From Hominibacterium faecale (GTDB lineage: Bacteria > Bacillota > Clostridia > Peptostreptococcales > Anaerovoracaceae), in assembly GCF_020734085.1 (NCBI RefSeq), contig NZ_JAJAGH010000008.1, positions 5,743 to 69,742 on the forward strand: a stretch of 64,000 nucleotides of DNA, given 5' to 3'. How positions within the stretch are numbered: position 1 is the stretch's first letter; each line of letters starts with the position of its first letter. The translations under genes and the position numbers were made by a program. Below, one piece after another: positions 33,016-57,087 of the stretch. The notes below the pieces were generated by a model, which was not told where the DNA came from, searched no databases, and saw only the letters and a program-made list of their open reading frames with translations.

Positions 33016-34425
33016 ATGAAAAGCCATAATCTCGATAAAGACACCAGGGCGGAATTGTTTGATGTGCTGCTGGAAAACTCCTTTATAGGAATAACGATAA
33101 CAGATGAAAAGGGCGAAATCGTAGTTGTAAACGAGGCTCAATCAAGGATAACCAATATACCAATCGTGGAATCAATCGGGGCAAATATGGAAAGCTATGT
33201 GGAAAGCAACTATATTTCCCAGTCCGCATCCATGCAGGTAATTCAGGATAAAAAACGAGTGGTGATTAACCAGAAATTATCTGCGGGCAAGTCCCATGTC
33301 GTTGAAGGTATTCCTGTGATGGATGATGCTGATCATATAAAATATACGGTCAATTTTTTATTGGATGAATCGGAACTGGAGGAAGCAAGGCAGGAAATCG
33401 AAACGGTTTCATCTGACAAAGAAAAACTTTTCAACAAGTATCAAGAATTGCTGGAAATCCTGAACGAACAGGAAGACATCATCTATCAGAGCAAGGTTAT
33501 GCGGGATATCGTGTATCTTGCGAGCCGAGTAGCTGATCGGGATGTAGCAGTGCTGATCACAGGGCCGTCCGGTTCGGGAAAGGAATTGATCGCCAATCTG
33601 CTTCATGAAAAGAGCAGGCGAAAAACGCGACCGTTCGTAAAAATAAATTGTTCGGCAATACCGGAGCAGCTGTTGGAATCAGAGCTGTTCGGATACGAGC
33701 CGGGCGCTTTTACCGGAGGAGCGCCAAAGGGTAAGGCAGGGCTGCTCGAGTATGCGGACGGAGGGTCTATACTGCTGGACGAAATCGGCGAAATGCCGAT
33801 GCAGCTGCAGGCCAAGCTCTTGCGGGTGCTGCAGGACCAGCAGGTACGCAGGATAGGCAGCACGAAAGATATTAAGGTTGATGTACGGATTATTGCTTCT
33901 ACAAATGCAGATTTGAAAAAGCTCATTGCAGAAAAAAAGTTCAGGGAAGACTTGTATTACAGGATCAATATCGTAGATATCAAAATGCCCGGACTGGATA
34001 AGCGCAGAGAAGACATACCGCTTTTGATCGCTCATTTTGAAAAACGTTTTAATCAAAAATATGATTTCAATAAAAAATTCAGCATTGATGCCATCAATTA
34101 TCTGATGGGTTTGGACTATTGCGGAAATGTTCGAGAATTGCAAAACATCGTCGAGCGGCTCATTGTCCAAAGTTCGAATGATGTTATTACTTTGGAGGAA
34201 GCCTTTGCTGCCATGGGTATCCTCACCATCGAGGAGGATGGGGAAGGAGGAAGGGAACTTATCAAAGTAGAAGAAGAGATGTCACTGAAAAAGATTATGG
34301 AACAATATGAAAGAAAGATCCTTCTTCATTATAAAAAAGTATATGGCAAAGGCACAGTGATGGCAGAAAAACTAAAGACTGACCAAGCCACAATCTCTAG
34401 GAAGCTAAAAAAATACGGTTTATAG
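33016..34425 (+). CDS. sigma-54-dependent transcriptional activator (PAS, AAA+, HTH)
   Basis: Walker A GPSGSGKE, GAFTGG sigma-54 contact motif, ESELFGYEPGAFTGG, and C-terminal HTH. Confidence 0.85.
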   Translation: MKSHNLDKDTRAELFDVLLENSFIGITITDEKGEIVVVNEAQSRITNIPIVESIGANMESYVESNYISQSASMQVIQDKKRVVINQKLSAGKSHVVEGIPVMDDADHIKYTVNFLLDESELEEARQEIETVSSDKEKLFNKYQELLEILNEQEDIIYQSKVMRDIVYLASRVADRDVAVLITGPSGSGKELIANLLHEKSRRKTRPFVKINCSAIPEQLLESELFGYEPGAFTGGAPKGKAGLLEYADGGSILLDEIGEMPMQLQAKLLRVLQDQQVRRIGSTKDIKVDVRIIASTNADLKKLIAEKKFREDLYYRINIVDIKMPGLDKRREDIPLLIAHFEKRFNQKYDFNKKFSIDAINYLMGLDYCGNVRELQNIVERLIVQSSNDVITLEEAFAAMGILTIEEDGEGGRELIKVEEEMSLKKIMEQYERKILLHYKKVYGKGTVMAEKLKTDQATISRKLKKYGL

Positions 34426-34640: not shown

Positions 34641-34656
34641 TGGCATCATAGTTGCG
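34641..34656 (+). promoter_or_regulatory. sigma-54 promoter TGGCATcatagTTGCG (-24 GG / -12 GC)
   Basis: GG and GC dinucleotides at canonical spacing, about 65 nt upstream of the amidohydrolase start. Confidence 0.6.
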
Positions 34657-36354: not shown

Positions 36355-37491
36355 ATGGATATAAATTTAGTTAAGAAAAGCAGAAGGCGCGCCTGGCTGG
36401 TTGTAACTGCGGGATTTTTTACTTATTTCTTTATTTATGGTTCGGCATTCAACTGTTTTGGTCTGTTTCTTACACCAATGACTGAAACGCTAGGGGTATC
36501 GAGGACAATCATATCCAGTCTTTTTACCATAGAGCTGCTGGTAGCTATACCGGGCGCTTTGATCTTTGGCAGAATCGCCGACAAAAGGGATCTGAAATGG
36601 CCAATGGCAATATGCTGTGCGCTGGTGGGCATAGGATATATCATGTATGCTACTGTAACTTCGGTGGCGCTGCTTTATATAGCAGCCGGACTGATCGGTA
36701 TTGGAATTGCAGGAACCATACAAATACCGGCGGCGATTTTCATTGATGGCTGGTTCATCAAAAGAAAAGGATTTGCTATGGGCGTCACCATGGTTGGAAG
36801 CGGTGTGGGTGGAACGATACTATCGCAGGTCCTCACACGCGTCATTCAGTCATCTGGATGGGAAGCCGCCTATTTTGGCCTGGGCGCAGCAATCATTGTC
36901 ATTACGGTTCCGCTCACTTTGGCCTTCGTTACAAAAACGCCGCATACTAAAAATATGCTCCGATATGGCGAAGAAGATGAGGCGTATATTGAGAAACTGA
37001 AAGCATCTGAATATGCGGCTTCAGAAAAAGAAGGCGATATAAGAGAGATCATGCGTAAACCAGAATTCTGGGTGCTGTTCATAGGTGTATTCTGTTTTAT
37101 GCTGCCGATGGGAGCCATCAAAGGCCATGTAGTAGCTTATTTAGGCGACCTGGGATATTCACCTCAGCTTGCGGCAAATATCCTAACCATTATGGTGTTT
37201 ACCGTGATACCGGGAAAGCCGTGTACAGGCATATTTTACGATAAGCTGGATTCCAGGATCGCCACTGCCATATGCGGAGTATGCATGGCAGGCGGACTGT
37301 TCTTCTCTTTGGGGGCAGGAGCCGGGATTATATTCGCGATCGCCTTTGCTGCAATTTATGGATTCGGATCAGCACTGGCATTGCTTTTGTCGGCGATCAT
37401 CATCGCCATAGGATATCTGGCATGTATCATCGCATTGACAATGAGCAAAAGAAGGAAAAGGCAGAGCAGGAAACATAATTTCTGTAATTAA
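36355..37491 (+). CDS. MFS transporter
   Basis: 12 TM. GAGGAGG RBS. Confidence 0.8.
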   Translation: MDINLVKKSRRRAWLVVTAGFFTYFFIYGSAFNCFGLFLTPMTETLGVSRTIISSLFTIELLVAIPGALIFGRIADKRDLKWPMAICCALVGIGYIMYATVTSVALLYIAAGLIGIGIAGTIQIPAAIFIDGWFIKRKGFAMGVTMVGSGVGGTILSQVLTRVIQSSGWEAAYFGLGAAIIVITVPLTLAFVTKTPHTKNMLRYGEEDEAYIEKLKASEYAASEKEGDIREIMRKPEFWVLFIGVFCFMLPMGAIKGHVVAYLGDLGYSPQLAANILTIMVFTVIPGKPCTGIFYDKLDSRIATAICGVCMAGGLFFSLGAGAGIIFAIAFAAIYGFGSALALLLSAIIIAIGYLACIIALTMSKRRKRQSRKHNFCN

Positions 37492-37531
37492 GGAACGTCC
37501 GATAATCGGCTCCGAACAGGGCGGCGTCAGG
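37482..37531. repeat. 50-bp composite junction: 21 nt identical to nnr (56273-56293) fused directly to 29 nt identical to mazF (57161-57189)
   Basis: ctgtaattaaggaacgtccga + taatcggctccgaacagggcggcgtcagg. In the full copy the two pieces lie 870 bp apart. GTCCG microhomology sits at the junction. Confidence 0.6.
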
Positions 37532-37583
37532 ACAAGCGGTACAAAACATCTGATTTACAGGCCGCATAGATAAAAAGCAGAAA

Positions 37584-37623
37584 TAAGTCAAAAACGACTA
37601 TGTGAATAGTCGTTTTTGACTAT
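37584..37623. promoter_or_regulatory. perfect 16-bp inverted repeat AGTCAAAAACGACTAT-gtga-ATAGTCGTTTTTGACT (candidate EBP UAS)
   Basis: Lies about 170 bp upstream of the sigma-54 promoter at 37783. The same motif family recurs at 37670-37687 and at 54193-54315. Confidence 0.45.
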
Positions 37624-37782
37624 AAAAATAACGTTGTTTGGGATGAATTCCTTCCTATTTTAAGAGCGGATAGTCAATTTTAGCTAGCAATAAAAATGCC
37701 TGGCTAAAATGAAATTGAAGAAAAACCTTTTGTTTCAAGGAAATAGAAGGTTTTTTGTGCGTTTCTTGAAACTAAATGTATT

Positions 37783-37798
37783 TGGCATACAATTTGCA
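37783..37798 (+). promoter_or_regulatory. sigma-54 promoter TGGCATacaatTTGCA
   Basis: Canonical -24 GG / -12 GC spacing, about 127 nt upstream of the GAPDH start. Confidence 0.55.
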
Positions 37799-37924
37799 AT
37801 ATATTAAGGTCAGTATATTATCAACAAGGACTCGGAGGCGCCGTTAATGCAGCTTGCAGATCATGCCATCTGCGGAGCTTTAAAAAAGGTGATTCCGGAA
37901 ATGAGTGAACGAGGAGGAGAAACA

Positions 37925-38947
37925 ATGACGAATGTATTAGTGGTGGGTTATGGAACAATTGGACAGAGGCTTGCCGACGGGGTTAGTCTGCAGGACGATA
38001 TGAATCTGATTGGAGTTGTGGACGCGGCAATGAGTCTGTCGATCAGGGCCCTGAAAGAAAAAGGCATGCCATATGATCTTTATGCAGTAAACGAAACGTG
38101 CCGGGCCGAGCTTGCAGCAAACGGGATTCCAGTCCGCGGACTTTTGGAGGAAGCACTTGAGAAAACAGACATTGTATTGGATGCGACATCCGCAGGTGTT
38201 GGTGCGAAAAATAAAGAGCAATATAAAAAATATGGGGTTAAAGCGGTCTTCCAGGGCGGCGAGAAAAATGATGTGGCAGATGTGTTTTTTCACGGATATG
38301 CCAACTATGAAAAAGGCCTCCATGCGGATTTCCTAAAGCTGACATCCTGCAACACAACCGGATTGATCCGGGCAGTAGACTGCCTCGATAAAAAATGCGG
38401 GATTGAGAAGGTCGCGATTACCATTGTACGGAGAGTTGCGGACCCGGGAGATTACCACAGAGGATTGACCAATGCGCTGCAGGTTGACAAAGCGCCCAAT
38501 CATCAGGCACTGGATCTGATGACGATTTTGCCGGAAATTAAAGCGACCGGAATCCTGGTGCACGCACCGGTAACCCATGGACACTTTATTACCGTAGTGG
38601 CAACACCGAAGAGAGATATATCAGTGAAGGAGGCAATCGATACATTCAAAGAGCACAACCGTATTCGCATGGTCAGACTGGATGAAGGATTTCAGGGCAA
38701 TGCTTCAATCTTCAAATACGCAAGAGATCTTGGAAGGCCAAGAGGCGATCTGTATGAAATCTGCATCTGGGAGGACACCATCGTAAAATCTGGTAAGGAT
38801 ATTATGTTTGGAATACATATTCCACAGGAATCGGTAACCATTCCTGAGACGATTGATGCGATTCGTGCGGCAATGGCCATGGATACAGACGGAAAAACAG
38901 CGGTGGAAAAGACCAACAAGAATCTTGGCCTGGGAGGATGGAAATGA
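37925..38947 (+). CDS. type II (archaeal-type) glyceraldehyde-3-phosphate dehydrogenase family protein
   Basis: Start at MTNVLVVGYGTIGQR (GAGGAGGAG RBS). SCNTTGL catalytic-Cys motif and overall collinearity with archaeal GAPDH (for example Methanothermus) rather than bacterial GapA. Confidence 0.75.
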   Translation: MTNVLVVGYGTIGQRLADGVSLQDDMNLIGVVDAAMSLSIRALKEKGMPYDLYAVNETCRAELAANGIPVRGLLEEALEKTDIVLDATSAGVGAKNKEQYKKYGVKAVFQGGEKNDVADVFFHGYANYEKGLHADFLKLTSCNTTGLIRAVDCLDKKCGIEKVAITIVRRVADPGDYHRGLTNALQVDKAPNHQALDLMTILPEIKATGILVHAPVTHGHFITVVATPKRDISVKEAIDTFKEHNRIRMVRLDEGFQGNASIFKYARDLGRPRGDLYEICIWEDTIVKSGKDIMFGIHIPQESVTIPETIDAIRAAMAMDTDGKTAVEKTNKNLGLGGWK

Positions 38948-40188
38948 TTAAATGGAAAACAGTGGACGATTATGATTATCGGAACAAAGTGACCTTGCTG
39001 CGAGTGGACATCAACTCTCCAATCCACCCAGGTACGAAGAAAATTGTAAACGAAAACAGGATTCATAAAAGCGCGCCAACCATCCAGAAGCTGTTAGATA
39101 AAGGTACGAAGCTGGTGATCATCGCGCACCAGGGGGATACGCTGGATTACGAAAACCTGATCCCTATGGAAGAACATGCTCAAAAGTTGAATCAATATAT
39201 AAACGGGAGTATCCGCTATATTGATGATCCCTGCGGTCCGGCAGCACAGGAAGAAATCCGAAAGCTGAAGGCTGGAGAAGGACTTTTACTGGGAAACTTG
39301 CGCTATCTTACTGAAGAGACTTCAACCTTTGAGAATGTGGTAAAGCTAAAGCCAGAATTGATGGAACAGACCTACCTGGTACGATCCCTGCTTCCTTTAT
39401 GTGATTATTATGTCAACGACGCCTTTTCCGCAGCCCATAGAAATGCACCTTCCATGGCTGCATTCCAGAGGCTTCTTCCTACGGCAGCAGGCGAGCTGAT
39501 GTGCCGGGAAGTTGAAGCGCTGGATCAGATTATTGAATCTCCGGACCACCCATGTCTGTTTGTGTTAGGAGGTGCAAAGATTTCCGATGCCTTTGGCATG
39601 ATGAAGCAAGTTCTGGAAACAGGCAAAGCGGATAAAATTCTTACTTGCGGAGTTACAGGTGAAATTATGCTGATGGCGAAAGGCTATTCATTGGGAGAAA
39701 AAAAGGAATTATTTATCCGCGAGCGGGGACTGGACCGTTTCGTACAGGAGGCAAGGCAATATCTTGATAAATACCCACAAAAGATCGATTATCCAGTTGA
39801 TGTGGTGTATGAAAGAAGCGGGGAACGCTGTACGCTGGACATTGACGAATTGCCCAAGTCAGAACTGTTTATGGACATTGGAGAAAAAACGATTGAGCAC
39901 TATCGACGAGAAATCATACAAGCAAAAACCATTTTTGTAAACGGACCTGCAGGCGCTTATGAAAATCCGCTTTTTGAAAGAGGAACGAAAGAAGTCTGGG
40001 AAGCGATTGCAGCTGCAAAAGGCTATTCTGTCATCGGAGGCGGCGACACCGTCAGTGCGGCGCAGCGCTATATTAATCTGGATGATATTGGTTATGTCTG
40101 CACTGCAGGAGGTGCGATGGTGAGGTATGTATCCGGGACAAAACTGCCTTTAATCGAGGCCATGGACGGTGCACAATCAAAAGGTTAA
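38944..40188 (+). CDS. phosphoglycerate kinase family protein (archaeal-type)
   Basis: RVDINSPI, VNDAFSAAHR and GGAKISDAFGM / GGGDT PGK motifs. The ATGA start overlaps the GAPDH stop. Confidence 0.75.
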   Translation: MIKWKTVDDYDYRNKVTLLRVDINSPIHPGTKKIVNENRIHKSAPTIQKLLDKGTKLVIIAHQGDTLDYENLIPMEEHAQKLNQYINGSIRYIDDPCGPAAQEEIRKLKAGEGLLLGNLRYLTEETSTFENVVKLKPELMEQTYLVRSLLPLCDYYVNDAFSAAHRNAPSMAAFQRLLPTAAGELMCREVEALDQIIESPDHPCLFVLGGAKISDAFGMMKQVLETGKADKILTCGVTGEIMLMAKGYSLGEKKELFIRERGLDRFVQEARQYLDKYPQKIDYPVDVVYERSGERCTLDIDELPKSELFMDIGEKTIEHYRREIIQAKTIFVNGPAGAYENPLFERGTKEVWEAIAAAKGYSVIGGGDTVSAAQRYINLDDIGYVCTAGGAMVRYVSGTKLPLIEAMDGAQSKG

Positions 40189-40219
40189 AAGAACAGAGAT
40201 TCTGGGAAAGGAAAACAAA

Positions 40220-41287
40220 ATGAATACATATAAAATTGCAGTAATCGGCGGAGACGGCGTAGGACCGGAAGTTTGCAGGGAAGGAAAAAAGGTTCTGCAT
40301 AAAATTGCAGAGCTGGATAAGGGCATCGGATTTGAATTTGAGGATTTCCCCTGGGGATGTGAATATTATCTGGAGCATGGTGAAATGATGCCGCAGGATG
40401 CCCTGGAGACTCTAAAAAAATTTGATGCCGTTTACTTGGGAGCAGTTGGATTTCCGGGGGTACCGGACCATATTTCTTTGTGGGATATTCTGCTGAAAAT
40501 CAGAAAAGGGTTTGATCAATATATCAACCTGCGGCCGATCAAGCTGCTGAAAGGAGCCCCATGTCCGCTTGCAGGTGTAAAGCGCGAGCAGATTGACATG
40601 CTGGTTGTGCGGGAAAACAGCGAAGGCGAATATGCAGGAAGCGGAAGCTGGATGTACAAGGGAAAAATCAACGAAGTGGTGATACAGGACAGTGTTTTTT
40701 CCAGACTGGGATGTGAAAGGGTGATTCGCTATGCGTATGAATTAGCAAAAAAAGAGAAGAAAACATTGACAAGCATTAGCAAAGCCAATGCACTTAATTA
40801 CTCCATGGTATTTTGGGATCAGATTTTTGAAGAGGTCGGACGGGAATACCCGGATGTGGAAACCTACTCCTATCTGGTGGATGCGGCAAGCATGTTTTTT
40901 GTAAAAGAACCTGAGCGGTTTCAGATCGTAGTAACGTCCAATTTGTTCGGAGATATTCTCACCGATTTAGGGGCAGCGATTGCGGGAGGTATGGGACTTG
41001 CCGCAGGGGCAAATATCAATCCGGAAAGGCTCTATCCGTCCATGTTTGAGCCGATCCACGGATCTGCGCCCGACATTGCGGGAACCGGGCAGGCAAATCC
41101 CCTTGCAGCGGTCTGGTCAGTCAGCCAGATGATGGACTTTTTCGGTTATGAGGAATGGGGAAAACGCATATTGGATGCCATTGAACAGCTTCTTACAGAA
41201 AAAAAGAGCCTGCCACGCGACTTAGGAGGGAGTTCGACAACAGAAGCTGTCGGAAATGAAATTGTGCGGCTGCTGGAACGGGCGTAA
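40220..41287 (+). CDS. tartrate dehydrogenase / D-malate / 3-isopropylmalate dehydrogenase-family decarboxylating dehydrogenase
   Basis: Start at MNTYKIAVIGGDGVGPEV. NLFGDILTDLGA signature. 355 aa. Confidence 0.7.
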   Translation: MNTYKIAVIGGDGVGPEVCREGKKVLHKIAELDKGIGFEFEDFPWGCEYYLEHGEMMPQDALETLKKFDAVYLGAVGFPGVPDHISLWDILLKIRKGFDQYINLRPIKLLKGAPCPLAGVKREQIDMLVVRENSEGEYAGSGSWMYKGKINEVVIQDSVFSRLGCERVIRYAYELAKKEKKTLTSISKANALNYSMVFWDQIFEEVGREYPDVETYSYLVDAASMFFVKEPERFQIVVTSNLFGDILTDLGAAIAGGMGLAAGANINPERLYPSMFEPIHGSAPDIAGTGQANPLAAVWSVSQMMDFFGYEEWGKRILDAIEQLLTEKKSLPRDLGGSSTTEAVGNEIVRLLERA

Positions 41288-41342
41288 AGGGTAAAGGGAT
41301 AAAATGCGGCAACGCCGCATTCAATGGGGAAAATCGTATACC

Positions 41343-42425
41343 CTAAGAATAAAAGACCCGCTGAAAAAGCTGATGTCTTCCGCTGATATCCAATTTCTGA
41401 TAGATATTGGATACATGCTTTTTTACGGTAGGCATACTGATTTGACATTGCTCCATGATTTCCGTATTGCTGAGGCCGTTTACCAGATACTGGAGCACTT
41501 CGTATTCCCGGAGGGTCAGGTGATTGGTCTCTTTGATGGAAAGAAGGATATTGTCGATGATGGTGGAATAGTCGTAAACACAGCAGGAGAAGGTCTGGTC
41601 AGAATCGTTGTAGCTGACGTTGACGTAATAGGACTTATCTTCCAGGTTGATTTTACTGTGGGTTTTCAAAGTTTCAGACACTTTGGAAGCGCCTCGGGCC
41701 GAGATTTCCTGCTTTAGCGTCTCGCACATGGCAGTAAACATATTCCGGATCGTATCCAGAGAGAGCTGAGAATGCAGGCCGGTGGTAATATTGGAATGCA
41801 TGATGTTCAGATCCCGGTCGTAAACCATGTACACCAGAATATTATCGTGAGAAAACATAGTATATTTGCTTTTATCCAGATTATGCTTTGCCTCACAAAC
41901 ATCCTGAACGATTCTGGACAAGTGCAGTTTGAACATTTTGATCAATTCCAGATCCTGCGCGGTAAAATCCTCAGATTGCTTTGACCGATGCAGCCCAATG
42001 CCGCAGACATATCCACTGGGGGAATTTTCCACAAAGAGATTGCCCTCGATGGAATAATACATATTGCAGGGCTTGAGGCATTCTTTAAAATAGCGGGTTT
42101 TCTCCCGCTCAGAGCGGGTAAAAATCTCCGAGCTTTTGAAGATGATGGGCTGTTTCAAAGAAACGATAGGCAGAGCATCGTCCATGTCACAGACCTTGAA
42201 ATAATAGTTCAGATCCTTTCCCCATCCGGCAAAGATAAAATTTTCAAATCGAATGCTGTTCTGCCCTTTTTTAAAAATATAAATATCGCCTTTTTCAAAG
42301 AAGCAAAGTTTCTTTAGTTCTTCAAGAAAGTGCTGCAAAGCGTCGATTTTATTGTATGCAACATATAAATCCGAAATCATTTTGTTAAACGTATAAAATT
42401 CATTTTCATTAAAGGTAAATGCCAT
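41343..42425 (-). CDS. LuxR-family transcriptional regulator with large N-terminal sensor domain
   Basis: C-terminal GerE/LuxR HTH (LTLREYEVLQYLVNGLSNTEI...). Start at MAFTF (AGGAAA RBS). Divergent from the GRE operon. Confidence 0.7.
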   Translation of the reverse strand: MAFTFNENEFYTFNKMISDLYVAYNKIDALQHFLEELKKLCFFEKGDIYIFKKGQNSIRFENFIFAGWGKDLNYYFKVCDMDDALPIVSLKQPIIFKSSEIFTRSEREKTRYFKECLKPCNMYYSIEGNLFVENSPSGYVCGIGLHRSKQSEDFTAQDLELIKMFKLHLSRIVQDVCEAKHNLDKSKYTMFSHDNILVYMVYDRDLNIMHSNITTGLHSQLSLDTIRNMFTAMCETLKQEISARGASKVSETLKTHSKINLEDKSYYVNVSYNDSDQTFSCCVYDYSTIIDNILLSIKETNHLTLREYEVLQYLVNGLSNTEIMEQCQISMPTVKKHVSNIYQKLDISGRHQLFQRVFYS

Positions 42426-42643
42426 AATATTTCCTCTGCATAACATTTAGCAAAAACAGACTGTATATTTATTATATTTGATTGTATTTGAAAAGTAAAT
42501 GTTCAATTCGGCAAGGTATACCAACGGCTACCATGGAAAAAATCCTACTGCAGAACAATTGTCAGAAAACTTGATCGGGTATATAGTTAATCTATACTTG
42601 GAAAAGACAAGACAACGGATAAAATGACGAAGGAAGGGAGTGA

Positions 42644-42916
42644 AAGAAAACGAATATAAAATTTAGAGCAGCCAGCCCGGCGATTACAGACGGCAGGCTG
42701 GCTGACAGATATGGGAGCTGGTCCAGAGAAGCTGAAATCGCCTATGGTATCCCGCTTACATCTTTTCCCCTCCGGTGGGAAGGGGTACCTGCGGGCACAA
42801 AGAGCTATGCGGTCATCTTTATGGATAACGACAACGCAAAAGGGGAAGGATTTCCTTTTATACATTGGCTGGCCTGCAACATTCCGGGGGAAATGACCGA
42901 GCTTTACTACGGATAG
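42644..42916 (+). pseudogene. truncated PEBP/YbhB-family gene remnant (no start codon, premature stop)
   Basis: Frame encodes ...PLRWEGVPAGTKSYAVIFMDNDNAKGEGFPFIHWLACNIPG, which matches the N-terminal half of YbhB. It ends 9 codons later, 21 nt before the GRE start. No ATG/GTG/TTG upstream in frame. Confidence 0.45.
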
Positions 42917-42937
42917 AAAGAGAAGGGAGCAAATCAC

Positions 42938-45343
42938 ATGAACACAGAAAACAGAACTTTTTCTTTAGAAGGGGAAAACCATTTCCCCAGAATTGAAAAG
43001 CTGATCGAAGACTACAGAAAAGCCCGGCCCAGCGTAGATATCGAGCGGGCCAGAATCTATACCGAGTCTTTCAAAGAAACAGAAGGGGAAGACATCATTA
43101 CCAGACGGGCCCAGGCCTTCAAGGATTACTGCGAGAAAAGAGAGATACGGATTGCAGACCACCAGCTGATTGCAGGCGATGTCGCCAGAATCCCCAGGGC
43201 TGGAGTTGTAGACCCGGTGTTTCACTGCGGCTGGCTCAGCGAAGAACTGGACACCATTTCCACAAGAAAACAGGATCCCTATTTCATTTCGGAAGAGGAT
43301 AAAAAAGAACTGCGGGAAACCATTTTTCCATATTGGAAAGGCAAAATTGTCAGCGAACTCTGGCTCCGCCAAATCCCGCCTTATGTAAGAGAAATGGCCG
43401 TCAAGACCGGCATCATCGACGTGGAGATCAAAACTCAGAGCGCGGCCGGAGAGACAGCTCCTTACTGGGAAAAGGCCATGAATACCGGCCTGGGACAGAT
43501 GGAAAAGGAGCTTGCGGAGGCCATCGACGCTCTGGATCCGATTGATCCGGAAAGCTATGAAAAAATTACGTTTTATAAAGCCTGTAAGATGACCTTAGAA
43601 GGCTTAAAGCATTATATCCTGCGGTTTGCCGGTCTGGCTGAAGAGCAGGCCGATCAGGCGGCAGGCAAAAGAAAGGAGGAGCTGGAACGCATTGCTGCCA
43701 ACTGCCGCTATCTTTCAGATAACAAACCAAAAACCTTCTGGCAGGGGCTGCAGCTTACTTACTTCATCCTGGCAGGCTGCATGATGGAAGGCAACGGCCC
43801 TTCCTATTCGCCGGGAAGAATGGACCAGTATCTGTATCCTCTGTACGCAAAGGATATGGAAGAAGGAAGACTGACGGATGCACAGACGCTGGAGCTGATC
43901 GAGGCATTCTATGTAAAGACAGCGGAATCCACTTGGTTTCTCAGTGCAAATGCGGCCATGTACTTTGCGGGATATCAGCCGTTTCACAGCATTATCGTAG
44001 GCGGGATTGACAAGAGGGGAAAGGATGCGACCAACCAGCTGTCCTACCTGTTTATCACAGCTAAAATGGATGTACAGCTTCACAGCCCCTCTCTGTGCGC
44101 CCGGGTACACCAGCAGTCGCCAGAGGAGCTGATTGCCCACATCGCCAAACTGGCCAGACTGGGAACCGGATTTCCGGCTATCTATAACGATGAAGTCGCC
44201 ATTAAGATGATGCTGCTGTCCGGAGGAACGATGGAAGAGGCCAGAGACTATCAGATGGTTGGGTGTGTTGAGCCGTTTATGGGCGGCAAGATGGCCAAAT
44301 GGTCAGACGGCGGCCACTACAACTATGCGGCGGCCATGGAATTCGTTCTCCATAACGGAAGAAGCATTATCAATGAGAACAAGCTGCTGGGTTTGGAAAC
44401 AGGTGATCCACAGGACATGACTTACGATGAAATCAAAGATGCGGTGAAACAGCAGCTCAAATATATGATCGAGTCCATCAGCATCTGCGCCAATGTCAAT
44501 GAGAAGGTCTGCGCAGAGCTGACACCGTACCCGTTTATTTCCACATTCCTGGAAGGGACGTTACATACAGGAAAAGATCTGACCCGGGGTGGTGTGAAAT
44601 ATACCATCGGACCGGCGCTGATCGGCACAGGCATTGCAGATCTGGTTAACTCGCTTTCCGCAATTAAGAAGCACGTCTTTGATGATAAGACGATTACTAT
44701 GGGTGAGTTGATCCAGGCACTGAAAGCAAATTTTGATGGTTATGAAAAAATCCGTCTCATGCTGCAGAATACAACGCCGATGTACGGAAATGACATTGAA
44801 GAGGTGGATGCGCTGGCAGGAGAAATGACTGATTACGCCTACAGTGTGATTTCCCAGTGCAAATCCTGGAGAGGTCCGCACTTTATTTCCGGTCTGTACC
44901 CGGTATCCTCACATGTTCCCCACGGACTGGTGGTAGGCGCTCTGCCTTATGGGCGGCTTTCAGGAAAGGCCCTTGCGGACGGATGCTTCCCAAATGGCGG
45001 AACCGACCACGAAGGACCAACTTCCGTATTAAAATCGGTTTCCAGAATCAATCACGAAGTCCATACCTCGGGCACCCTGCTGAATATGAAACTGGACCCT
45101 CAAAGTGTTTCGGGAGATTTGGGAATCAAGCGGATTTCCGACATCATCCGTACATTTGTAGACTTGAATATCTATCACATTCAGTTCAATGTAGTGAGCC
45201 GTGAGCTGCTGCGAGCAGCGCAGGACAAACCGGAAGAACACAAATCACTGATCGTGCGAGTAGCCGGATATAGCGCCTACTTCACGGAACTTTGTGAAGA
45301 AATGCAGGACGACATCATCAACAGAACCATACATCAGGCTTAA
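42938..45343 (+). CDS. glycyl radical enzyme, glycerol/diol-dehydratase-like clade (substrate unknown)
   Basis: 801 aa. VGCVEP Cys-loop. C-terminal glycine radical motif RVAGYSAYF. Block-by-block similarity to C. butyricum glycerol dehydratase as recalled, but the NGHS active-site stretch reads NGPS here. Confidence 0.85.
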   Translation: MNTENRTFSLEGENHFPRIEKLIEDYRKARPSVDIERARIYTESFKETEGEDIITRRAQAFKDYCEKREIRIADHQLIAGDVARIPRAGVVDPVFHCGWLSEELDTISTRKQDPYFISEEDKKELRETIFPYWKGKIVSELWLRQIPPYVREMAVKTGIIDVEIKTQSAAGETAPYWEKAMNTGLGQMEKELAEAIDALDPIDPESYEKITFYKACKMTLEGLKHYILRFAGLAEEQADQAAGKRKEELERIAANCRYLSDNKPKTFWQGLQLTYFILAGCMMEGNGPSYSPGRMDQYLYPLYAKDMEEGRLTDAQTLELIEAFYVKTAESTWFLSANAAMYFAGYQPFHSIIVGGIDKRGKDATNQLSYLFITAKMDVQLHSPSLCARVHQQSPEELIAHIAKLARLGTGFPAIYNDEVAIKMMLLSGGTMEEARDYQMVGCVEPFMGGKMAKWSDGGHYNYAAAMEFVLHNGRSIINENKLLGLETGDPQDMTYDEIKDAVKQQLKYMIESISICANVNEKVCAELTPYPFISTFLEGTLHTGKDLTRGGVKYTIGPALIGTGIADLVNSLSAIKKHVFDDKTITMGELIQALKANFDGYEKIRLMLQNTTPMYGNDIEEVDALAGEMTDYAYSVISQCKSWRGPHFISGLYPVSSHVPHGLVVGALPYGRLSGKALADGCFPNGGTDHEGPTSVLKSVSRINHEVHTSGTLLNMKLDPQSVSGDLGIKRISDIIRTFVDLNIYHIQFNVVSRELLRAAQDKPEEHKSLIVRVAGYSAYFTELCEEMQDDIINRTIHQA

Positions 45344-45360
45344 ATACAGGAGATTTGTCA

Positions 45361-46269
45361 ATGAAGGAAAAACGGACAGGGATTATCTTTAATACGCAGA
45401 AATTTTCCATACATGACGGCGGCGGGATACGGACCCTGATTTTTATGAAGGGCTGCCCGCTGCGGTGTATCTGGTGCAGCAATCCGGAATCCCAGAGGCC
45501 GGAGCCGGAGATCACAGATGTAAAAACCAATTGTATTGGCTGCGGAGACTGCGTTTGTGTATGTCCGAAGGAGGCAGTCAATCCGTTGACCTTTCAGATT
45601 GACCGGGGCAAGTGCGATGCCTGCGGCCTGTGCGCGAAAAGCTGCTACGCACAGGCTAAAAAGCTGACCGGTCAGGTAGTGACTGTGGAGGAGCTGGTGA
45701 ATATCGCTGTAAAGGATCAGGTCATATACCGGAATTCAGGCGGCGGTGTGACGGTCGGAGGCGGCGAGCCTCTGACCCAGCCGGACTTCGTTTACGAGTT
45801 TCTCCGTGCCTGCAGCATGCGCAACATCCATACGGCCATTGAAACCTGCGGCTTTGGAGACTGGTCTGAGGTGGAAAAGGTTTTTCACCAGGCCGATCAG
45901 ATTTTATTTGATTTGAAATGCATGGATGAGGAAAAGCATCGGGCGTATACTGGCGTAAGTAATAAAAGCATCCTGCTCAACGCAGAAAAGGCGGCGGCCT
46001 CAGGCAAAGAGATCCGCTTTCGGGTCCCGGTGATCCCAGGGGTAAACGACGGGGAGAATATACGGCAAACCGGAGCGTTTGTCCGTGGGCTGCAGAGGCA
46101 AAACAGTCAGGTGAAGGTTGAACTGCTGCCTTATCATAATTTTGGAAAAGACAAGTATAAATGGCTCGGCAGAAAGTATGATCTGGAGCCTTTAGAGCGT
46201 ATGGAAAAAGAGGAGTTGGGCCGATATTACAAGGTGTTGGAAGAATTGGACTGTAATGTCGTATATTAA
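45361..46269 (+). CDS. glycyl radical enzyme activating protein (radical SAM, with two extra ferredoxin-like clusters)
   Basis: CPLRCIWCSNPES radical-SAM motif. CIGCGDCVCVCP and CDACGLCAKSC motifs. AGGAG RBS. ATG at 45361. Confidence 0.85.
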   Translation: MKEKRTGIIFNTQKFSIHDGGGIRTLIFMKGCPLRCIWCSNPESQRPEPEITDVKTNCIGCGDCVCVCPKEAVNPLTFQIDRGKCDACGLCAKSCYAQAKKLTGQVVTVEELVNIAVKDQVIYRNSGGGVTVGGGEPLTQPDFVYEFLRACSMRNIHTAIETCGFGDWSEVEKVFHQADQILFDLKCMDEEKHRAYTGVSNKSILLNAEKAAASGKEIRFRVPVIPGVNDGENIRQTGAFVRGLQRQNSQVKVELLPYHNFGKDKYKWLGRKYDLEPLERMEKEELGRYYKVLEELDCNVVY

Positions 46270-46272
46270 AAA

Positions 46273-46312
46273 AGGAGCCGGTCGCTGTGCATTCAGTGGC
46301 CGGCTCCTTTTG
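46273..46312. terminator. bidirectional terminator
   Basis: ggagccggtc...ggccggctcc stem with T-run, between convergent operons. Confidence 0.55.
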
Positions 46313-46401
46313 TTGGGCTTCCGCATAGATTGGAAAAATGTCGCTTCGCGATCTTTCCTCATTGATGCGACAGCCCAACTCGATTAATTTATATGAAATG
46401 G

Positions 46402-47478
46402 CTATTTCACATAGGTCTCCATTGGGCGGATCATATAGTTGAGAGGGCCCATCTTATCGGTCGTAACATAGCCTGGCTCGGAGTTCATGACATCCGGTAT
46501 CCGGTTAACAACGGAAGCACAGGTAATGGCTACGGTGTCCGGTTTCTTTAATACGAAGTCCTGGGTCGGTTCTCCGTAAAGGGTCCATTTGATCAAATCC
46601 TCTTCGCCGGGAGCATATACTTTTCCCACACACTCGGTTTCCAGCGTGATGCCTTCTTCTGTAGTGGTAATCACCGTAGCGGAGAGCCCGACTGCATGGC
46701 CGGCGGGGATTTCTGTCTGCAGAACATCGGACCATAACGGCTGATCGCAGGTCTGAGGGATGAATTTCTGTTCCTGTGTCTTTACAGTCAATCCCAGCAG
46801 GGAACAGATCCAGCCGTTGGCATTCCACATGTAGCATGGAAGGAAATCTTCTGTTTCCAGTACTTCCTGTCTCTTTTCCTCAGAAATATTATTAACAGCG
46901 GCAATGGTCTTTTCAAATTCATCCAGCGACAGGTTGACGCCATGAACCTTGGCCAGGGCAACTCCGTAATCTTCCGAATTATATACAACAGAGCCTTTAA
47001 TTTTGGTGACTTTATTGGATGCCCCGGCGATGGTGGAAATAATGTATCCCCAGCCCATGTCCTGTGCTCCGGTCCCGCAGATGGTACAGTTGTTCTTTTT
47101 TGCAAGCTCATCGATTTCCTTTGTCATCTTATAGCGGGAGTTCCATGGATAAAAGGCCTCTTCACATGTGGAGATGGCATTAATGCCCAATTCCGCGCAG
47201 AGAAGGAAGATGTCCTGACAGTCGGGGAGAAGGGCCATGGTTTCAACAATGCATACATCCGGCTTAGTCTGGGTGAGGATCTGGCGGGCATCCTTGGCGT
47301 AGCTGACTTTAACGCCCTTGTTTTCTGTGCCCATGATCTCGCCAATATCTTTGCCAAAGGCGCGGTCGGATTTACCAAAAGCGCAGACCACCTCGCCACC
47401 ATGGTCATAGACATACTTCATAGTTGGACCAGCCATTTTTCCACTTCCATACTGAGCAACTTTTACTTTACGATTCAT
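46402..47478 (-). CDS. DapB-fold NAD(P)-dependent oxidoreductase, probable amine dehydrogenase (2,4-diaminopentanoate dehydrogenase-like family)
   Basis: N-terminal Rossmann motif KVAQYGSGKMAG. Architecture recalls native amine dehydrogenases. AGGAGG RBS. Last gene of the dehydratase operon. Confidence 0.5.
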   Translation of the reverse strand: MNRKVKVAQYGSGKMAGPTMKYVYDHGGEVVCAFGKSDRAFGKDIGEIMGTENKGVKVSYAKDARQILTQTKPDVCIVETMALLPDCQDIFLLCAELGINAISTCEEAFYPWNSRYKMTKEIDELAKKNNCTICGTGAQDMGWGYIISTIAGASNKVTKIKGSVVYNSEDYGVALAKVHGVNLSLDEFEKTIAAVNNISEEKRQEVLETEDFLPCYMWNANGWICSLLGLTVKTQEQKFIPQTCDQPLWSDVLQTEIPAGHAVGLSATVITTTEEGITLETECVGKVYAPGEEDLIKWTLYGEPTQDFVLKKPDTVAITCASVVNRIPDVMNSEPGYVTTDKMGPLNYMIRPMETYVK

Positions 47479-47552
47479 TTTTTACCTCCTAAAATTTTCA
47501 CAATGATTGATATGTTGATACGGCAAAATCAGCCGATCTGGATAAACACAAG

Positions 47553-47897
47553 TTATAACGGATATAAGGGCAGCCCTTTCACGAGGCGGGCTGCATTTTG
47601 ACCAAAGATTCGCCCTTCCTTTTTCGTCAGAGCAGGCGGCCTCTTTTCCAGGATACAGGTCCCGGGCCCAGCCTTCTGATGCATGAGAAACACCTTCTCT
47701 TTTGATATTCCGATTGCAATGCCCACCTTGGAAGCCTGAGCTGAGCCAAAGGTGTGCTCGTTCAGAGCAGAGGCGGGCGCAAGGGTGCGGGTGCTGAACA
47801 AGCCTTCCTCCTCGATTCCGTACTCGATCTGCGTCACATAGCAGGATAGGGAGTCCTCGGTATAAAGCAGGTGGATTGCCGGGTATCGGTTATTCAT
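47553..47897 (-). CDS. diol/glycerol dehydratase reactivase small (beta) subunit
   Basis: Start at MNNRYPAIHLLY. EEEG and NAARLVKGLP blocks match DdrB/DhaG. Overlaps the alpha subunit stop by 8 nt. Confidence 0.7.
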   Translation of the reverse strand: MNNRYPAIHLLYTEDSLSCYVTQIEYGIEEEGLFSTRTLAPASALNEHTFGSAQASKVGIAIGISKEKVFLMHQKAGPGTCILEKRPPALTKKEGRIFGQNAARLVKGLPLYPL

Positions 47898-49782
47898 GGC
47901 CCCCTCCTTTTTGCGCTTTTGCTGCGCCATCTGGTTGGGGTGAAGACTTGCGGTCAAAGGCTTCTTCTTTCTGAAGGAATGCATAAAGCAGGCCGCTAGC
48001 AACCGCATTCCGCGGCCCCATGCACCCGCGAATATTGCCTTTCCCGCTGGTGATGCCATAGTAGGCCAAAACATCCGTCAGCATATTTGGGAGTTCAAAG
48101 TCCAGTGAAGAGCCACCGACCAGCACCACATGCTCGAATTCATGAAGGGTGCCTGTAGCAGAAACCTTCAACAATGCCCGAAGCACATTGTTGACAAAGA
48201 CCTTTCGTTTGATCTCTCTGCGGACGGAACGAACCTTTTCCAAAGAATGCCTGGTATTGATCGGCAGATATCCGTCCGGTTGAATGGACAAAAGTTTGGC
48301 GAAAAAGTCACTGTGGAGCGGCTCTTTGAAAAACTCCACACTTCCGTCTTCGTGGCGCAGGTGAAACAGGGACTCGGCTCTTGCCAGAGGATATTTTTTG
48401 ATGGCTTCCGCTTCTTCTCTGGAAGAAAGGCCCAGCTCTGCCTGGATCAGCTCGGTCACCATGTTGCCCGCGCCAGCCAGGTGGATGGTCTTTTTCTGGC
48501 CATCACTGTGAAGATAACAGGAATCCGTAGATCCGGCGCCAATATCAACAACCAGGATGGGCGTTCCGCTTCCCGGCGTCGTGAGGGTTCCAAGGACTGC
48601 CATATCTCCCTCGACACCGCCGATCTCCGTGGGGCAGCCGACTGTTTCCTCCAGTAGAGCCGCCAGGTGCTGCATGTGCAGCTTTTGGGTCTTTACCATG
48701 GCCGCGATGCCGACGGATTTTTCCATATAAAACTCATTGGCCAAGGAGCCGATCACATTTTGCGGCACCAAAGTGTCTACGGCCATCAGATCCTGAATAA
48801 AGATGGAATCTTCCGGCGTATCGGTGACTTGAGCCATCTTTTTGCGAACCGACTCCAGCATACCGCCGACATTCGTACCGCTGCTGCCGTGGACATCACG
48901 AATCGAACCGGCACGTTTCACCTGATCCATAATTTTTTGGGCACCGTCGTCCACGTTGACCCGGTACTGCTGCCTCTGTCCGTCGATGATGATTTCGCCC
49001 GCCGGGATGATCCGTTCATGGATGCTGCCGGAAGGCGTTTTGATGACAACGGCAGAGCGGTTGCCGATCAGCGCTTTGGCAATATGGATTACATGCTTTG
49101 TCTCCGCAGAAGAGAGAGAAAAGGCGGTCGCAATGCCATAGGGGTTGGTGAGAAAGTCGATCGACGCACCCGGCCTTGCCACCTCTACGGCACACAGATA
49201 ATCCACCGGAACCTTATCGATGAGGGAGACCTCATCCACGATGGGAAGGGTTTCCGAAAGCCGATTGCAGATCAGCACCCCGTCATCATTTTGGACGATC
49301 AGTCCTTTGATGGAATAACCATCTTCAATGGCCAGATTAACCTCCCTGGCTGCGGTAATAAAGTCGTGCTCCTCTGAAATAATAACGATATGCGGCTTTT
49401 GTTTATCTGCTGCGGGAAGATCCTCCAAAAATACGGTGTAGCCGATGCCAAGACCAAGGCCACCGGGAGTGTCCGGGTTGTGGCCAATCATGGCAGATTC
49501 GGTAATGACCGTCTGAGTGATCGTTTCCATGGCAAAATCACCGATCACAGGAGTTGCCTCGTTAATACGGATCAGATCCAGAGAAGACAGCGGGATATCC
49601 ATATCCGCACAGGCTTCTTTTAGAGAATTGATCATTCCGTAAAGGTTGTCTTTTGTACCTTTGATACCGGTTGTTTTTGTTATTCCGCTGGTGCAGCGAA
49701 GCAGCCGCCCATCCTGGATCTTGCCCAGAGCAGTTTCGGTGGTAGCATTTCCGATATCGATACCAGCTACATAAGTGATCAT
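47890..49782 (-). CDS. diol/glycerol dehydratase reactivase large (alpha) subunit
   Basis: MITYVAGIDIGNATTE N-terminus typical of DdrA/DhaF. 630 aa. Confidence 0.8.
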   Translation of the reverse strand: MITYVAGIDIGNATTETALGKIQDGRLLRCTSGITKTTGIKGTKDNLYGMINSLKEACADMDIPLSSLDLIRINEATPVIGDFAMETITQTVITESAMIGHNPDTPGGLGLGIGYTVFLEDLPAADKQKPHIVIISEEHDFITAAREVNLAIEDGYSIKGLIVQNDDGVLICNRLSETLPIVDEVSLIDKVPVDYLCAVEVARPGASIDFLTNPYGIATAFSLSSAETKHVIHIAKALIGNRSAVVIKTPSGSIHERIIPAGEIIIDGQRQQYRVNVDDGAQKIMDQVKRAGSIRDVHGSSGTNVGGMLESVRKKMAQVTDTPEDSIFIQDLMAVDTLVPQNVIGSLANEFYMEKSVGIAAMVKTQKLHMQHLAALLEETVGCPTEIGGVEGDMAVLGTLTTPGSGTPILVVDIGAGSTDSCYLHSDGQKKTIHLAGAGNMVTELIQAELGLSSREEAEAIKKYPLARAESLFHLRHEDGSVEFFKEPLHSDFFAKLLSIQPDGYLPINTRHSLEKVRSVRREIKRKVFVNNVLRALLKVSATGTLHEFEHVVLVGGSSLDFELPNMLTDVLAYYGITSGKGNIRGCMGPRNAVASGLLYAFLQKEEAFDRKSSPQPDGAAKAQKGGGHE

Positions 49783-49794
49783 AGGCTGCTCCTT

Positions 49795-50217
49795 TTACCG
49801 GTTGTGCTTGAGGCGGTTGCTGTCTTGCAGGATTTCGCCTGCCTCCCGGACGAACTGAGCGGTCTCAGCGGCTCCGTATTTGTTTTCCAAAGCATCGGCA
49901 ACCGCTAAAATGTCTTCCATTTCACTACGGAAAGGGCGAATAGTGTTATAGACTTCCAAAATATAGTCATCGGGAACATTGGTCAGCTCCGCCGCGCGCC
50001 GCAGATTGGCCGCAATCTGAATATCGCCTGCCGACTGGGCGATTTCGGCCTGCATCAGCAAGGTGTCCTTGTGGATCTTTCCGTCCTCCATTTTGACCGT
50101 CCCTGCCAGAACGTTTTCCATGGTCAGTTGGCCTATGGGTCTTCCGGACATGGCTTTCAGTTTGTCAGGGTGCTTTTCCAGGAGTGGATAATCGGTTTTG
50201 TAATTTAAGGTATTCAT
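49795..50217 (-). CDS. B12-dependent diol/glycerol dehydratase small (gamma) subunit
   Basis: DYPLLEKHPD and RRAAELTNVPDDYILEVYNTIRPFRS match PddC/DhaB3. Confidence 0.8.
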   Translation of the reverse strand: MNTLNYKTDYPLLEKHPDKLKAMSGRPIGQLTMENVLAGTVKMEDGKIHKDTLLMQAEIAQSAGDIQIAANLRRAAELTNVPDDYILEVYNTIRPFRSEMEDILAVADALENKYGAAETAQFVREAGEILQDSNRLKHNR

Positions 50218-50241
50218 GGGTTTTGCCGTTCCTTTCTGTAA

Positions 50242-52467: not shown

Positions 52468-52620
52468 TTCCTACTCCTTTTCTACTTTGGTTTCTTTAAG
52501 AATCCCTGTGAGGACCATAAAAGTTTCCTCGTAACCTTATTTTAACATAAAGATTGCTCAATATTCTGAAAATTCTCCTGAGAAACGATGGGGACGAAAA
52601 TCTTTATGCTATTTAATAAA

Positions 52621-52635
52621 GCAAATTTTATGCCA
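52621..52635 (-). promoter_or_regulatory. sigma-54 promoter (minus strand: TGGCATaaaatTTGC)
   Basis: Plus strand reads GCAAattttaTGCCA. Lies about 155 nt upstream of the dehydratase start. Confidence 0.55.
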
Positions 52636-52758
52636 AAGATAATCGGCCCTAAAGAATAATGATAAAACTATACTGGCGGCTACTGTTGGAATGGGGCGTT
52701 TTCTGCTATAATAAGAATGTAGAAAAAGCGGAGGCAAGTGGAAGGAGGATAGAGCATT

Positions 52759-54195: not shown

Positions 54196-54228
54196 TCAAA
54201 AATAGCTATTATAGTCAAAAATGGCTAT
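54193..54228. repeat. tandem direct repeats TAGTCAAAAATAGCTAT / TAGTCAAAAATGGCTAT (candidate UAS), with a third degenerate copy at 54294-54315
   Basis: Same 16-17-bp motif family as the palindrome at 37584-37623. Confidence 0.4.
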
Positions 54229-54477
54229 GGTATGAAAAAGTGCTGTTATATTCAGATTTAGGCACGAGGAAGAGGAAAAAGGAGGTTTAAAAGTATAGCC
54301 AAAAATGCCTAGTCCTGCAACAGGCCCATGGTTGAAACCCTGGGATGAATCGAAATCTTTTGATCAAATTCCAGCAGGATAAAGGACTTGATTTTTTTAG
54401 TGCAAATCCGTAAATTCTCCTAAAATCCGTAACGCCCGAAAATTTTTTTGTCCTGCAGTTCAGTGATTTCTTAGTTT

Positions 54478-54493: not shown

Positions 54494-54551
54494 CTTTGAT
54501 TAATTTCGTAAAATCAAATTCATTATTCATATGTATTAAGGAGGTATCGCT

Positions 54552-56232: not shown

Positions 56233-57087
56233 ATGAAAAAAACAGGTTTAATAAATTTGGAATATGTAAATACTGTAATTAAGGAACGTCCGAGGGACAT
56301 ACATAAAGGTGACTGCGGAAAGGTTCTTGTGATTGCAGGCTCAGTTGGCATGGCAGGCGCGGCCGTGCTTTGCGCGCGGGGAGCGCTGCGATCCGGAGCA
56401 GGACTCGTACGGATATCTGCTCCCAGAGAACTATATCCCATTCTGCAGGTGGGCGTACCGGAAGCCACATGTGTCCCGAGAGAGCTTTCCTTACCGGAAC
56501 TGATGGACAGCGATGCCATCGCAGTTGGTCCGGGGTTAGGAGATGATGGGCAGAACGCCAAGCTTATCCGTACAATCTTAAAGGAATATAAAAAGACCGT
56601 CGTCCTCGATGCCGATGGGATCAATACCATCAGCCGGGCGGATCTGCTGGATGAACTGCGGGAAACGAAGGCCCAAGTGATCATGACACCCCATCCTGGA
56701 GAGGCTGCAAGACTTCTCAGTTATTGCGGGATTGAAACTTCCCGGATGGACAGGCCCAAGACGGCCCAGCTGCTGGTGGAACAGACCCGGGCTACCTGCG
56801 TGCTCAAAGGCAGCGGAACCCAGGTGGCAACAAAAGACGGCGAATCATATACTAATACTACAGGAAACCCGGGAATGGCTGCCGGCGGCAGCGGAGATGT
56901 TCTGACAGGCATCATCGCAGCGCTGGCCGGACAGAAGCTTTCTCCGGCGGACTGTGCAAAGGCGGGAGTGTTCATCCACGGGATGGCAGGGGACCTGTGC
57001 GCCCAATCTCTTGGAGAGACGGGTATGACGTCCCTGGACCTGGCAAACATGGTTGCTCTTGCTTTCAAACAAATCATAGGAAAATAA
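56233..57087 (+). CDS. nnr: NAD(P)H-hydrate dehydratase (YjeF C-terminal domain type)
   Basis: HKGDCGKVLVIAGSVGMAGAAVLCARGALRSGAGLV is the YjeF_C signature. Confidence 0.75.
   Translation: MKKTGLINLEYVNTVIKERPRDIHKGDCGKVLVIAGSVGMAGAAVLCARGALRSGAGLVRISAPRELYPILQVGVPEATCVPRELSLPELMDSDAIAVGPGLGDDGQNAKLIRTILKEYKKTVVLDADGINTISRADLLDELRETKAQVIMTPHPGEAARLLSYCGIETSRMDRPKTAQLLVEQTRATCVLKGSGTQVATKDGESYTNTTGNPGMAAGGSGDVLTGIIAALAGQKLSPADCAKAGVFIHGMAGDLCAQSLGETGMTSLDLANMVALAFKQIIGK
56273..56293 (+). repeat. right-hand copy of the 21-nt segment (inside nnr)
   Basis: Identical to 37482-37502. Confidence 0.6.

Follow-up and report, generated by a model that had tools for sequence, protein, structure and literature searches.

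The question raised by this locus is how two short pieces of neighbouring genes, nnr and mazF, came to stand fused to one another at the end of a transporter gene more than 18 kb away. The window, which is the whole stretch of DNA analysed here, comprises 64,000 nucleotides from Hominibacterium faecale, and all positions refer to it. The features that matter for the argument are as follows.

36355..37491, + strand: MFS transporter gene (Pfam MFS_1), the recipient
37482..37502, + strand: nnr-derived piece, exactly identical to 56273-56293, holding the last codons of the MFS gene and its TAA stop (37489-37491)
37497..37501, + strand: GTCCG microhomology at the inner joint, also at both donors; likely template-switch point
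37503..37531, + strand: mazF-derived piece, exactly identical to 57161-57189
37532..37553, + strand: candidate displaced native MFS tail, reading with TT 37480-37481 as TTA CAA GCG GTA CAA AAC ATC TGA
37586..37621, no strand assigned: hairpin with a 16-bp stem, presumed terminator of the MFS operon (fold z = -4.6, dominated by the hairpin)
56273..56293, + strand: donor site 1, inside intact nnr (56233-57087; Pfam Carb_kinase, E=1e-56)
57161..57189, + strand: donor site 2, inside intact mazF (57115-57477; Pfam PemK_toxin PF02452, E=1.1e-35)

A composite patch at the end of an MFS gene

Exact string comparison shows that positions 37482-37502 of the + strand (CTGTAATTAAGGAACGTCCGA, 21 nt) are 100% identical to nnr at 56273-56293, and that positions 37503-37531 of the same strand (TAATCGGCTCCGAACAGGGCGGCGTCAGG, 29 nt) are 100% identical to mazF at 57161-57189. 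The two pieces abut at 37502|37503, forming a patch of 50 nt. In the donors, the first stretch begins at the second base of nnr codon 14 and ends at the first base of codon 21, and the second begins at the second base of mazF codon 16 and takes in the whole of codon 25. Not one base can be added to either match. An earlier note on this DNA had described the same two abutting matches, and they are confirmed to the base; comparison of the window with itself finds them neither shorter nor imperfect, and the gap between the donor segments, put at 870 bp in that note, is 867 nt in the exact comparison. Each piece occurs in the window only at the patch and at its donor when both strands are searched, and the 50-mer as a whole occurs once. 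Both donors are downstream of the patch, at 18.8 kb (nnr) and 19.7 kb (mazF), and the pieces keep the strand and the order of their donors.

It had also been claimed that a composite of this kind does not arise by chance, and this holds. Third-order Markov shuffles of the window (20 in all) gave a mean of 0.15 repeat pairs of at least 18 nt per shuffle and none of at least 19 nt, while the real window has 4 pairs of at least 18 nt, 2 of which are the patch-donor pairs. Chance cannot produce these two matches.

The joint between the two pieces falls on a shared pentamer, GTCCG, found at 56288-56292 in nnr, at 57155-57159 in mazF and at 37497-37501 in the patch, as the earlier note had reported for both donor breakpoints. 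If mismatches are tolerated, the mazF match becomes 34/35 (37497-37531 against 57155-57189) and spans GTCCG, and the nnr match becomes 25/27 (37476-37502 against 56267-56293). The base that follows GTCCG, A37502, is the nnr base and not the mazF base, and the nnr frame passes into the mazF frame across the joint, making the fusion in frame. Since the inner joint lies on GTCCG, and since the composite is non-random and built from the lineage's own nnr and mazF, an origin by illegitimate, microhomology-mediated recombination is supported.

The patch sits in the 3' end of the MFS gene, with the stop codon of that gene inside the 21-mer, and the MFS gene reads the nnr-derived piece in a frame different from that of nnr. 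Every member of the MFS 90% cluster for which a C-terminus is present ends ...RKHNFCN, stopping inside the nnr-derived piece. Once the 50 nt are taken out, the MFS frame reads on for seven codons, LQAVQNI*, to a stop at 37551-37553. The closest homologue from outside the species, P0003 (locus L034), ends ...KAVQEL*, and its tail can be laid against this one in the same frame so that the stop codons coincide, AAGCGGTACAA matching AAGCTGTACAA. The local alignment of the tail with the P0003 DNA is short and, for the DNA alone, has p ~ 0.1 against shuffles, to which the agreement in frame and stop adds weight. The evidence for 37532..37553 as the native tail is weak to moderate, and the reading of the sequence from 37532 onward as the original end of the gene moderately persuasive. 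Given that the tail aligns in frame and stop on stop, both flanks of the patch would derive from one ancestral gene, and the patch would be a pure 50-bp insertion. Positions 37481 and 37532 would then have been adjacent in the ancestor, and the predicted k-mer of the empty site, with the patch excised, is AGGAAACATAATTTACAAGCGGTACAAAAC. The restored stop is 33 nt from the hairpin, which is the only structure found on RNA folding of 37460-37640. The full-length conspecific MFS allele, P0001, is 431 aa long, and homologues range from 423 to 436 aa. The more distant homologues P0003 and P0005 were considered as a source of the ancestral site and rejected, their contexts being non-syntenic, and a scan of a genome collection by way of the MFS protein returned no relatives.

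Two further length changes affect this gene. The MFS allele of the window has an in-frame internal deletion of 159 bp (53 codons) at 37371/37372 relative to the 431-aa conspecific allele, and two imperfect direct repeats, GCAATGGCAT and GCACTGGCAT, lie on either side of it. The junction takes two forms in different strains, ...GSALALL... and ...GSAMALL..., suggesting that slippage has recurred or was resolved differently; the transporter is probably inactivated in many strains. In L021, L027 and L029 there is a 5-bp ACAAA duplication 9 nt 3' of the patch (ACAAAACAAAAC; the equivalent of 37540 in the window), which is a small slippage polymorphism in the displaced tail. The patch itself has no evident physiological effect beyond swapping the last seven residues of the transporter.

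Donor genes and distribution among strains

Look-ups of exact proteins assign the window to Hominibacterium faecale / Ihubacter massiliensis (Anaerovoracaceae). The patch is present in all 19 independent conspecific contigs that cover the site (Hominibacterium faecale / Ihubacter massiliensis; isolate assemblies, MAGs and Logan contigs). The 50-mer is identical in 17 of these, and the other 2 (L023, L025) are one SNP away. An assembly artefact is ruled out by the number of independent contigs, and the patch is real because isolate genomes and MAGs carry it independently. A generic repeat, which the earlier note had named as a possible objection, was likewise rejected: a scan of a metagenome collection with the 22-nt junction found only one contig, from an unrelated soil sample and matching over the 22 nt alone.

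The conspecific contigs fall into 6 haplotypes over 554 bp, with 1 SNP in the 50-nt patch against 4 SNPs and one 5-bp indel in the 504 nt outside it. The SNP in the patch (37508 G>A, in L023/L025) lies in the mazF-derived piece and is missing from the mazF gene of the same assembly (L005). Being no better conserved than its flanks, and having a SNP that is not mirrored in mazF, the patch is best read as drifting neutrally, with no function of its own. The unmirrored SNP also led us to reject gene conversion as a process holding the patch identical to its parents, and stretches of 21-29 nt are very short for RecA-dependent exchange. The patch predates the sampled diversity and, as a clean and rare genomic change, can be used as a lineage marker for H. 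faecale / I. massiliensis.

The earlier note had suggested looking to relatives for an ancestral empty site, and no patch-free allele came to light in the MFS 90% protein cluster, by exact look-up or in the metagenome collection. The reconstructed patch-free MFS protein (435 aa) has no exact match in the protein collection, and neither do hypothetical Nnr(1-20)-MazF(16-120) fusion proteins. The metagenome collection gave 0 matches to the site in either form, patched or patch-free, and the species seems to be absent from it. No remnant of nnr-mazF longer than the patch is found among the 19 conspecific contigs or in the MFS cluster.

Comparison with sister species bears on where the donor DNA came from. 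L038 differs from the patch at 1/21 positions in nnr and 1/29 in mazF, and L041 at 2/21 positions in nnr and at least 2 in the mazF 29-mer. The patch thus carries the species' own alleles, from which the sister species differ, and the donor was therefore intragenomic or conspecific. The order nnr-mazF-tktN-tktC-...-ftsEX-pcsB-recJ-like-ctpB is conserved in the sister species (L038, L041, L128, L129).

The donor mazF encodes a PemK/MazF toxin domain (PF02452), its product being the exact protein WP_148395951.1 of Hominibacterium faecale by exact look-up. Comparison with type II MazEF systems shows the toxin domain to be shared and the adjacent, co-transcribed antitoxin gene to be absent: no + strand ORF lies between the nnr stop at 57087 and the mazF start at 57115, or overlaps this gap, and there is no antitoxin gene beside mazF in L038, L041, L128 or L129 either. 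From its gene context it is apparently an orphan MazF at a synteny breakpoint.

This raises the idea that the patch is functional, acting in the 3' UTR as a sense copy of the nnr/mazF mRNA and hence as a decoy for a regulator of the antitoxin-less mazF. The lack of an adjacent antitoxin gene, both here and in sister species, and the presence of the patch in every sampled strain would suit such a role. It is nevertheless very improbable, in view of the ordinary level of conservation and the unmirrored SNP described above. A permissive-threshold Rfam search of 37000-38200 gave only sub-threshold noise and no match above threshold, and there is no special structure beyond the terminator. Sister species, moreover, keep nnr-mazF, and yet there is no patch in the 859 bp available upstream of gap in L043, the one sister-species contig examined.

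The interval between the patch and its donors

The earlier note had taken the two parts of the 50-nt patch as marking the edges, at about 37532 and about 56272, of an inserted block, brought in for example by a circular element. Neither edge is upheld. In the nnr 5' regions of the sister species L038 and L041, whose Nnr proteins are 79-82% identical, homology runs from the ribosome binding site through codons 1-13 and on into the 21-mer, beginning about 50 nt upstream of the 21-bp repeat. Because the ribosome binding site and codons 1-13 are conserved in this way, nnr is continuous and intact, with no breakpoint at 56272. At the other end, what follows from 37532 is apparently the MFS gene's own end, now displaced, together with its terminator. 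Homology of L043 to the window upstream of gap starts only at about 37722, which leaves 37532-37720 on the MFS side. There is a synteny breakpoint near nnr, but it lies upstream of the ribosome binding site: four lineages have four different upstream neighbours, these being an ECF transporter, a dimethylamine methyltransferase with a B12-binding protein, a SulP transporter and, here, an amino-acid permease.

The contents of the 18.7-kb interval do not resemble those of a mobile element. Pfam matches identify type II GAPDH, PGK, an Iso_dh-like enzyme and a LuxR regulator; a glycyl-radical enzyme with its activase and a DAP-DH-like protein; and a B12-dependent dehydratase with its reactivase, a sigma-54 activator and an amino-acid permease. 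Between 37847 and 55925 the Pfam-annotated ORFs are metabolic enzymes, transporters and regulators only, with no integrase, transposase or other mobility gene among them; the ORF at 41304-41717 has no Pfam match. There is no step in GC at 37.5 or 56.3 kb (GC is 0.42-0.52 throughout), nor in GC skew at either boundary, the skew being mostly positive. In relatives the interval is a mosaic and not a unit: L043 has the part from gap to the reactivase, L044 has gap-pgk-isodh only, and in L047 the dehydratase module stands alone, among other genes than here. The circular or mobile element proposed earlier is therefore not supported.

The same evidence bears on a second reading, in which the perfect 21-bp direct repeats serve as attL and attR for an integrated element of 18.8 kb, its recombinase since lost, and the mazF piece is cargo from an earlier integration site. 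The likeness is in the repeats, which are identical and bound an interval of 18.8 kb. The difference is in everything that should accompany them. There is no recombinase, no tRNA-type target and no GC shift; the interval holds the type II GAPDH-PGK and other sigma-54 operons, and is a mosaic in relatives (L043, L044, L047); the synteny break in sister species lies upstream of the nnr ribosome binding site and not at the repeat; and the left repeat is inside the 3' end of a gene, with both of its sides apparently MFS-native. We regard this reading as largely refuted and give it scarcely any credence. CRISPR-like, integron-like and tRNA-target readings were also rejected, as the site has no flanking repeats, attC-like structures or tRNA genes.

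Several other features of the region deserve mention. Sigma-54-type -24/-12 promoters (TGGCA-N6-TTGC) are found at 34641-34656, 37783-37798, 52620-52635 (-) and 54478-54493, preceding the amidohydrolase-MFS, type II gap-pgk-isodh and B12 dehydratase operons and the amino-acid permease; a sigma-54-driven GAPDH-PGK operon is unusual. The two paralogous sigma-54 activators (33016-34425 and 52759-54195) share an exact stretch of 20 nt. A stem-loop, AAAACCTTTTGTTTCAAGGAAATAGAAGGTTTTTT, at 37721-37755, just 5' of the gap sigma-54 promoter, is kept in two sister species (L043 668-707; L047, reverse complement, 2344-2432) despite the surrounding intergenic DNA not being conserved, and is a candidate for an activator-binding site or a terminator. 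In L043 the DNA upstream of gap, at about 330-560, appears to hold the C-terminal Fis-type HTH of a sigma-54 activator in degraded form (...AKALRIGQSTVARKLRKY...), broken by a stop. It may be, therefore, that in the H. faecale lineage the amidohydrolase-MFS pair was inserted between an activator gene and the gap operon. The large subunit of the B12-dependent dehydratase is fused to a medium-subunit domain, giving 741 aa (50242-52467, -); a second, free-standing medium-subunit-like ORF (47553-47897, -) overlaps the start of the reactivase gene, and the dehydratase cluster adjoins the glycyl-radical enzyme and its activase.

Origin of the patch

The explanation that we favour, and consider somewhat probable, is that the patch is a templated filler insertion (a microindel) made in one step, with a template switch at GTCCG. 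The ancestor shared by the sampled Hominibacterium faecale / Ihubacter massiliensis strains would have suffered a break, or a stalled 3' end, at a point seven codons short of the native MFS stop, between what are now 37481 and 37532. The 3' end at 37481 would have been extended by about 20 nt on nnr, which lies on the same strand 18.8 kb downstream. Synthesis would then have re-primed by way of GTCCG on mazF, 867 nt further on, and copied about 30 nt, after which the new strand would have rejoined at 37532 with no loss of target bases and a net gain of 50. The MFS protein would thereby have received the three-residue end FCN* in place of LQAVQNI*, the old tail now lying in the 3' UTR before the terminator. 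Synthesis would have run from left to right, because GTCCG primes only that way. We infer both the single-event origin and the enzymology, and commit the patch to the general class of templated microindels and not to a particular enzyme.

Some details of the joints are to be set against each other here. A37502 can be read in two ways: as the last base templated by nnr, which would leave the primer mispaired at its end on mazF, or as the product of a G>A change that came with the switch or later. As a terminal mismatch for priming on mazF, unless misincorporated or changed later from G to A, it counts against a filler insertion. The 159-bp deletion, on the other hand, is another microhomology-mediated event in the MFS gene and counts for it. 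At the left outer joint 4/6 of the bases to the left match, and at the right outer joint there is no microhomology.

The main competitor is the reading put forward in the earlier note, a partial duplication followed by deletions, which we think possible but lean against. A second copy of nnr-mazF(1-25) would have come to lie to the left of 37532, creating a 57189|37532 joint, and two deletions would have left only the 21 and 29 nt, one running from the MFS end to nnr codon 14 and the other removing the 867 bp between the GTCCG repeats. The copy would have been made by tandem duplication of 37532-57189, or by homology-facilitated illegitimate (Campbell-like) integration of the block together with nnr-mazF DNA. 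Duplications arise often, and deletions are known to remodel them, as the duplication literature on Salmonella and E. coli describes for the join-points of tandem duplications. The structure of the patch can be derived in this way, the 867-bp step has its 5-nt microhomology, and synteny has broken repeatedly just upstream of nnr, where sister lineages have four different neighbours. The novel end-to-start adjacency (57189|37532) and the deletion between short direct repeats are also what a tandem duplication would give (for join-points see also bioRxiv 10.64898/2026.05.22.727201). The adjacency does exist; a templated insertion explains it equally well.

However, the duplication reading calls for three independent events with coincident breakpoints, and yet the 21- and 29-nt remnants have kept 100% identity to their parents. 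Should the native MFS tail indeed resume at 37532, the boundary of the duplication and the left endpoint of the deletion would fall on adjacent nucleotides. No duplicated material remains beyond the 50 nt: the degraded nnr/mazF homology that the earlier note had expected in 37532-37700 is absent at both the DNA and the protein level (blastn with word size 8, tblastn, and Smith-Waterman against shuffles), and the same methods find no other remnant of a second copy. No sampled strain has a longer remnant or is without the patch, and the interval is not a unit in relatives and is free of mobility genes. What stands from that account is the microhomology joint at GTCCG and the origin from the lineage's own nnr and mazF; the block edges, the element and the further homology do not.

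The one-step filler insertion that we prefer can be compared with several known processes, of which the nearest is SPDIR. Here ectopic single strands are integrated at microhomologies, giving patches of 3 to ~100 bp; this is experimentally documented in bacteria and has been detected retrospectively in natural genomes (bioRxiv 10.1101/2023.11.22.568220; 10.1101/2024.07.02.601687). Both preprints cite Harms et al. 2016. The likeness is that a short ectopic stretch from the same genome, here 50 nt, lies at an unrelated site with a donor that can be traced by identity. The patch differs in having two donor segments 867 nt apart, in having outer joints almost without microhomology, in being apparently a pure insertion and not a substitution, and in belonging to an anaerobic Firmicute and not to Acinetobacter. 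We know of no two-template patch described for SPDIR. With two templates, and with outer joints that show no clear microhomology, the fit to SPDIR proper is imperfect.

Templated (filler) insertions are also made at MMEJ junctions, by eukaryotic Pol theta in TMEJ and by a bacterial group II intron-like RT in MMEJ (bioRxiv 10.1101/2022.03.14.484287; PMC12426944). As here, short stretches are copied in cis, with re-priming at microhomologies of a few nt, and inserted at a repaired break. The donors in MMEJ, however, are within tens or hundreds of nt, while those of the patch are 18.8-19.7 kb away; the break itself is deduced, and no MMEJ-type enzyme was identified in this window. FoSTeS/MMBIR, in which serial switching of replication templates gives complex junctions (PMC5120786, PMC6902434), shares with the patch several switches within tens of kb, microhomology at the joint and short templated segments at the join-point. 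It usually goes with large changes in copy number, whereas here none remains and 50 nt have merely been added.

The patch is thus a further example of a mutation kind already known, the templated microindel, and looks like a neutral, species-wide scar of repair or replication. A more specific proposition is that it represents a naturally fixed two-template microindel, produced by serial template switching or by composite-donor SPDIR over ~19 kb in an anaerobic gut Firmicute. We consider this unlikely; if true, it would be direct genomic evidence that one of these processes operates over that distance, perhaps recurrently in the lineage. Natural microindels with identifiable donors are seldom reported and hard to detect (bioRxiv 10.1101/2024.07.02.601687), and a composite patch with an unambiguous inner microhomology helps to show how events of this kind come about outside laboratory model organisms. 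There is also a caution for genome scans, in that one illegitimate repair event can plant perfect short direct repeats far apart, so that such repeats need not mark a mobile element or the boundary of a duplication.

It is worth adding that the window contains another short match of unusual kind. The 20-nt sequence GGGAGCAGTTGGATTTCCGG occurs at 40438-40457 (+) in the Iso_dh-like gene and, as an exact inverted match, at 55090-55109 (reverse complement) in the amino-acid permease gene. The flanks of the two copies are unrelated, and the chance expectation is ~0.004 per window. In the Iso_dh-like gene it encodes the conserved LGAVGFPG, which is native in sister species. In the permease gene it specifies GNPTAPG; the corresponding residues of the homologue P0291, which is 89% identical, are GDAAAPG. 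The permease copy may be a second short ectopic patch and, taken with the 159-bp MFS deletions and their two junctions, this match raises the possibility that a short-patch process may be recurrent in the lineage.
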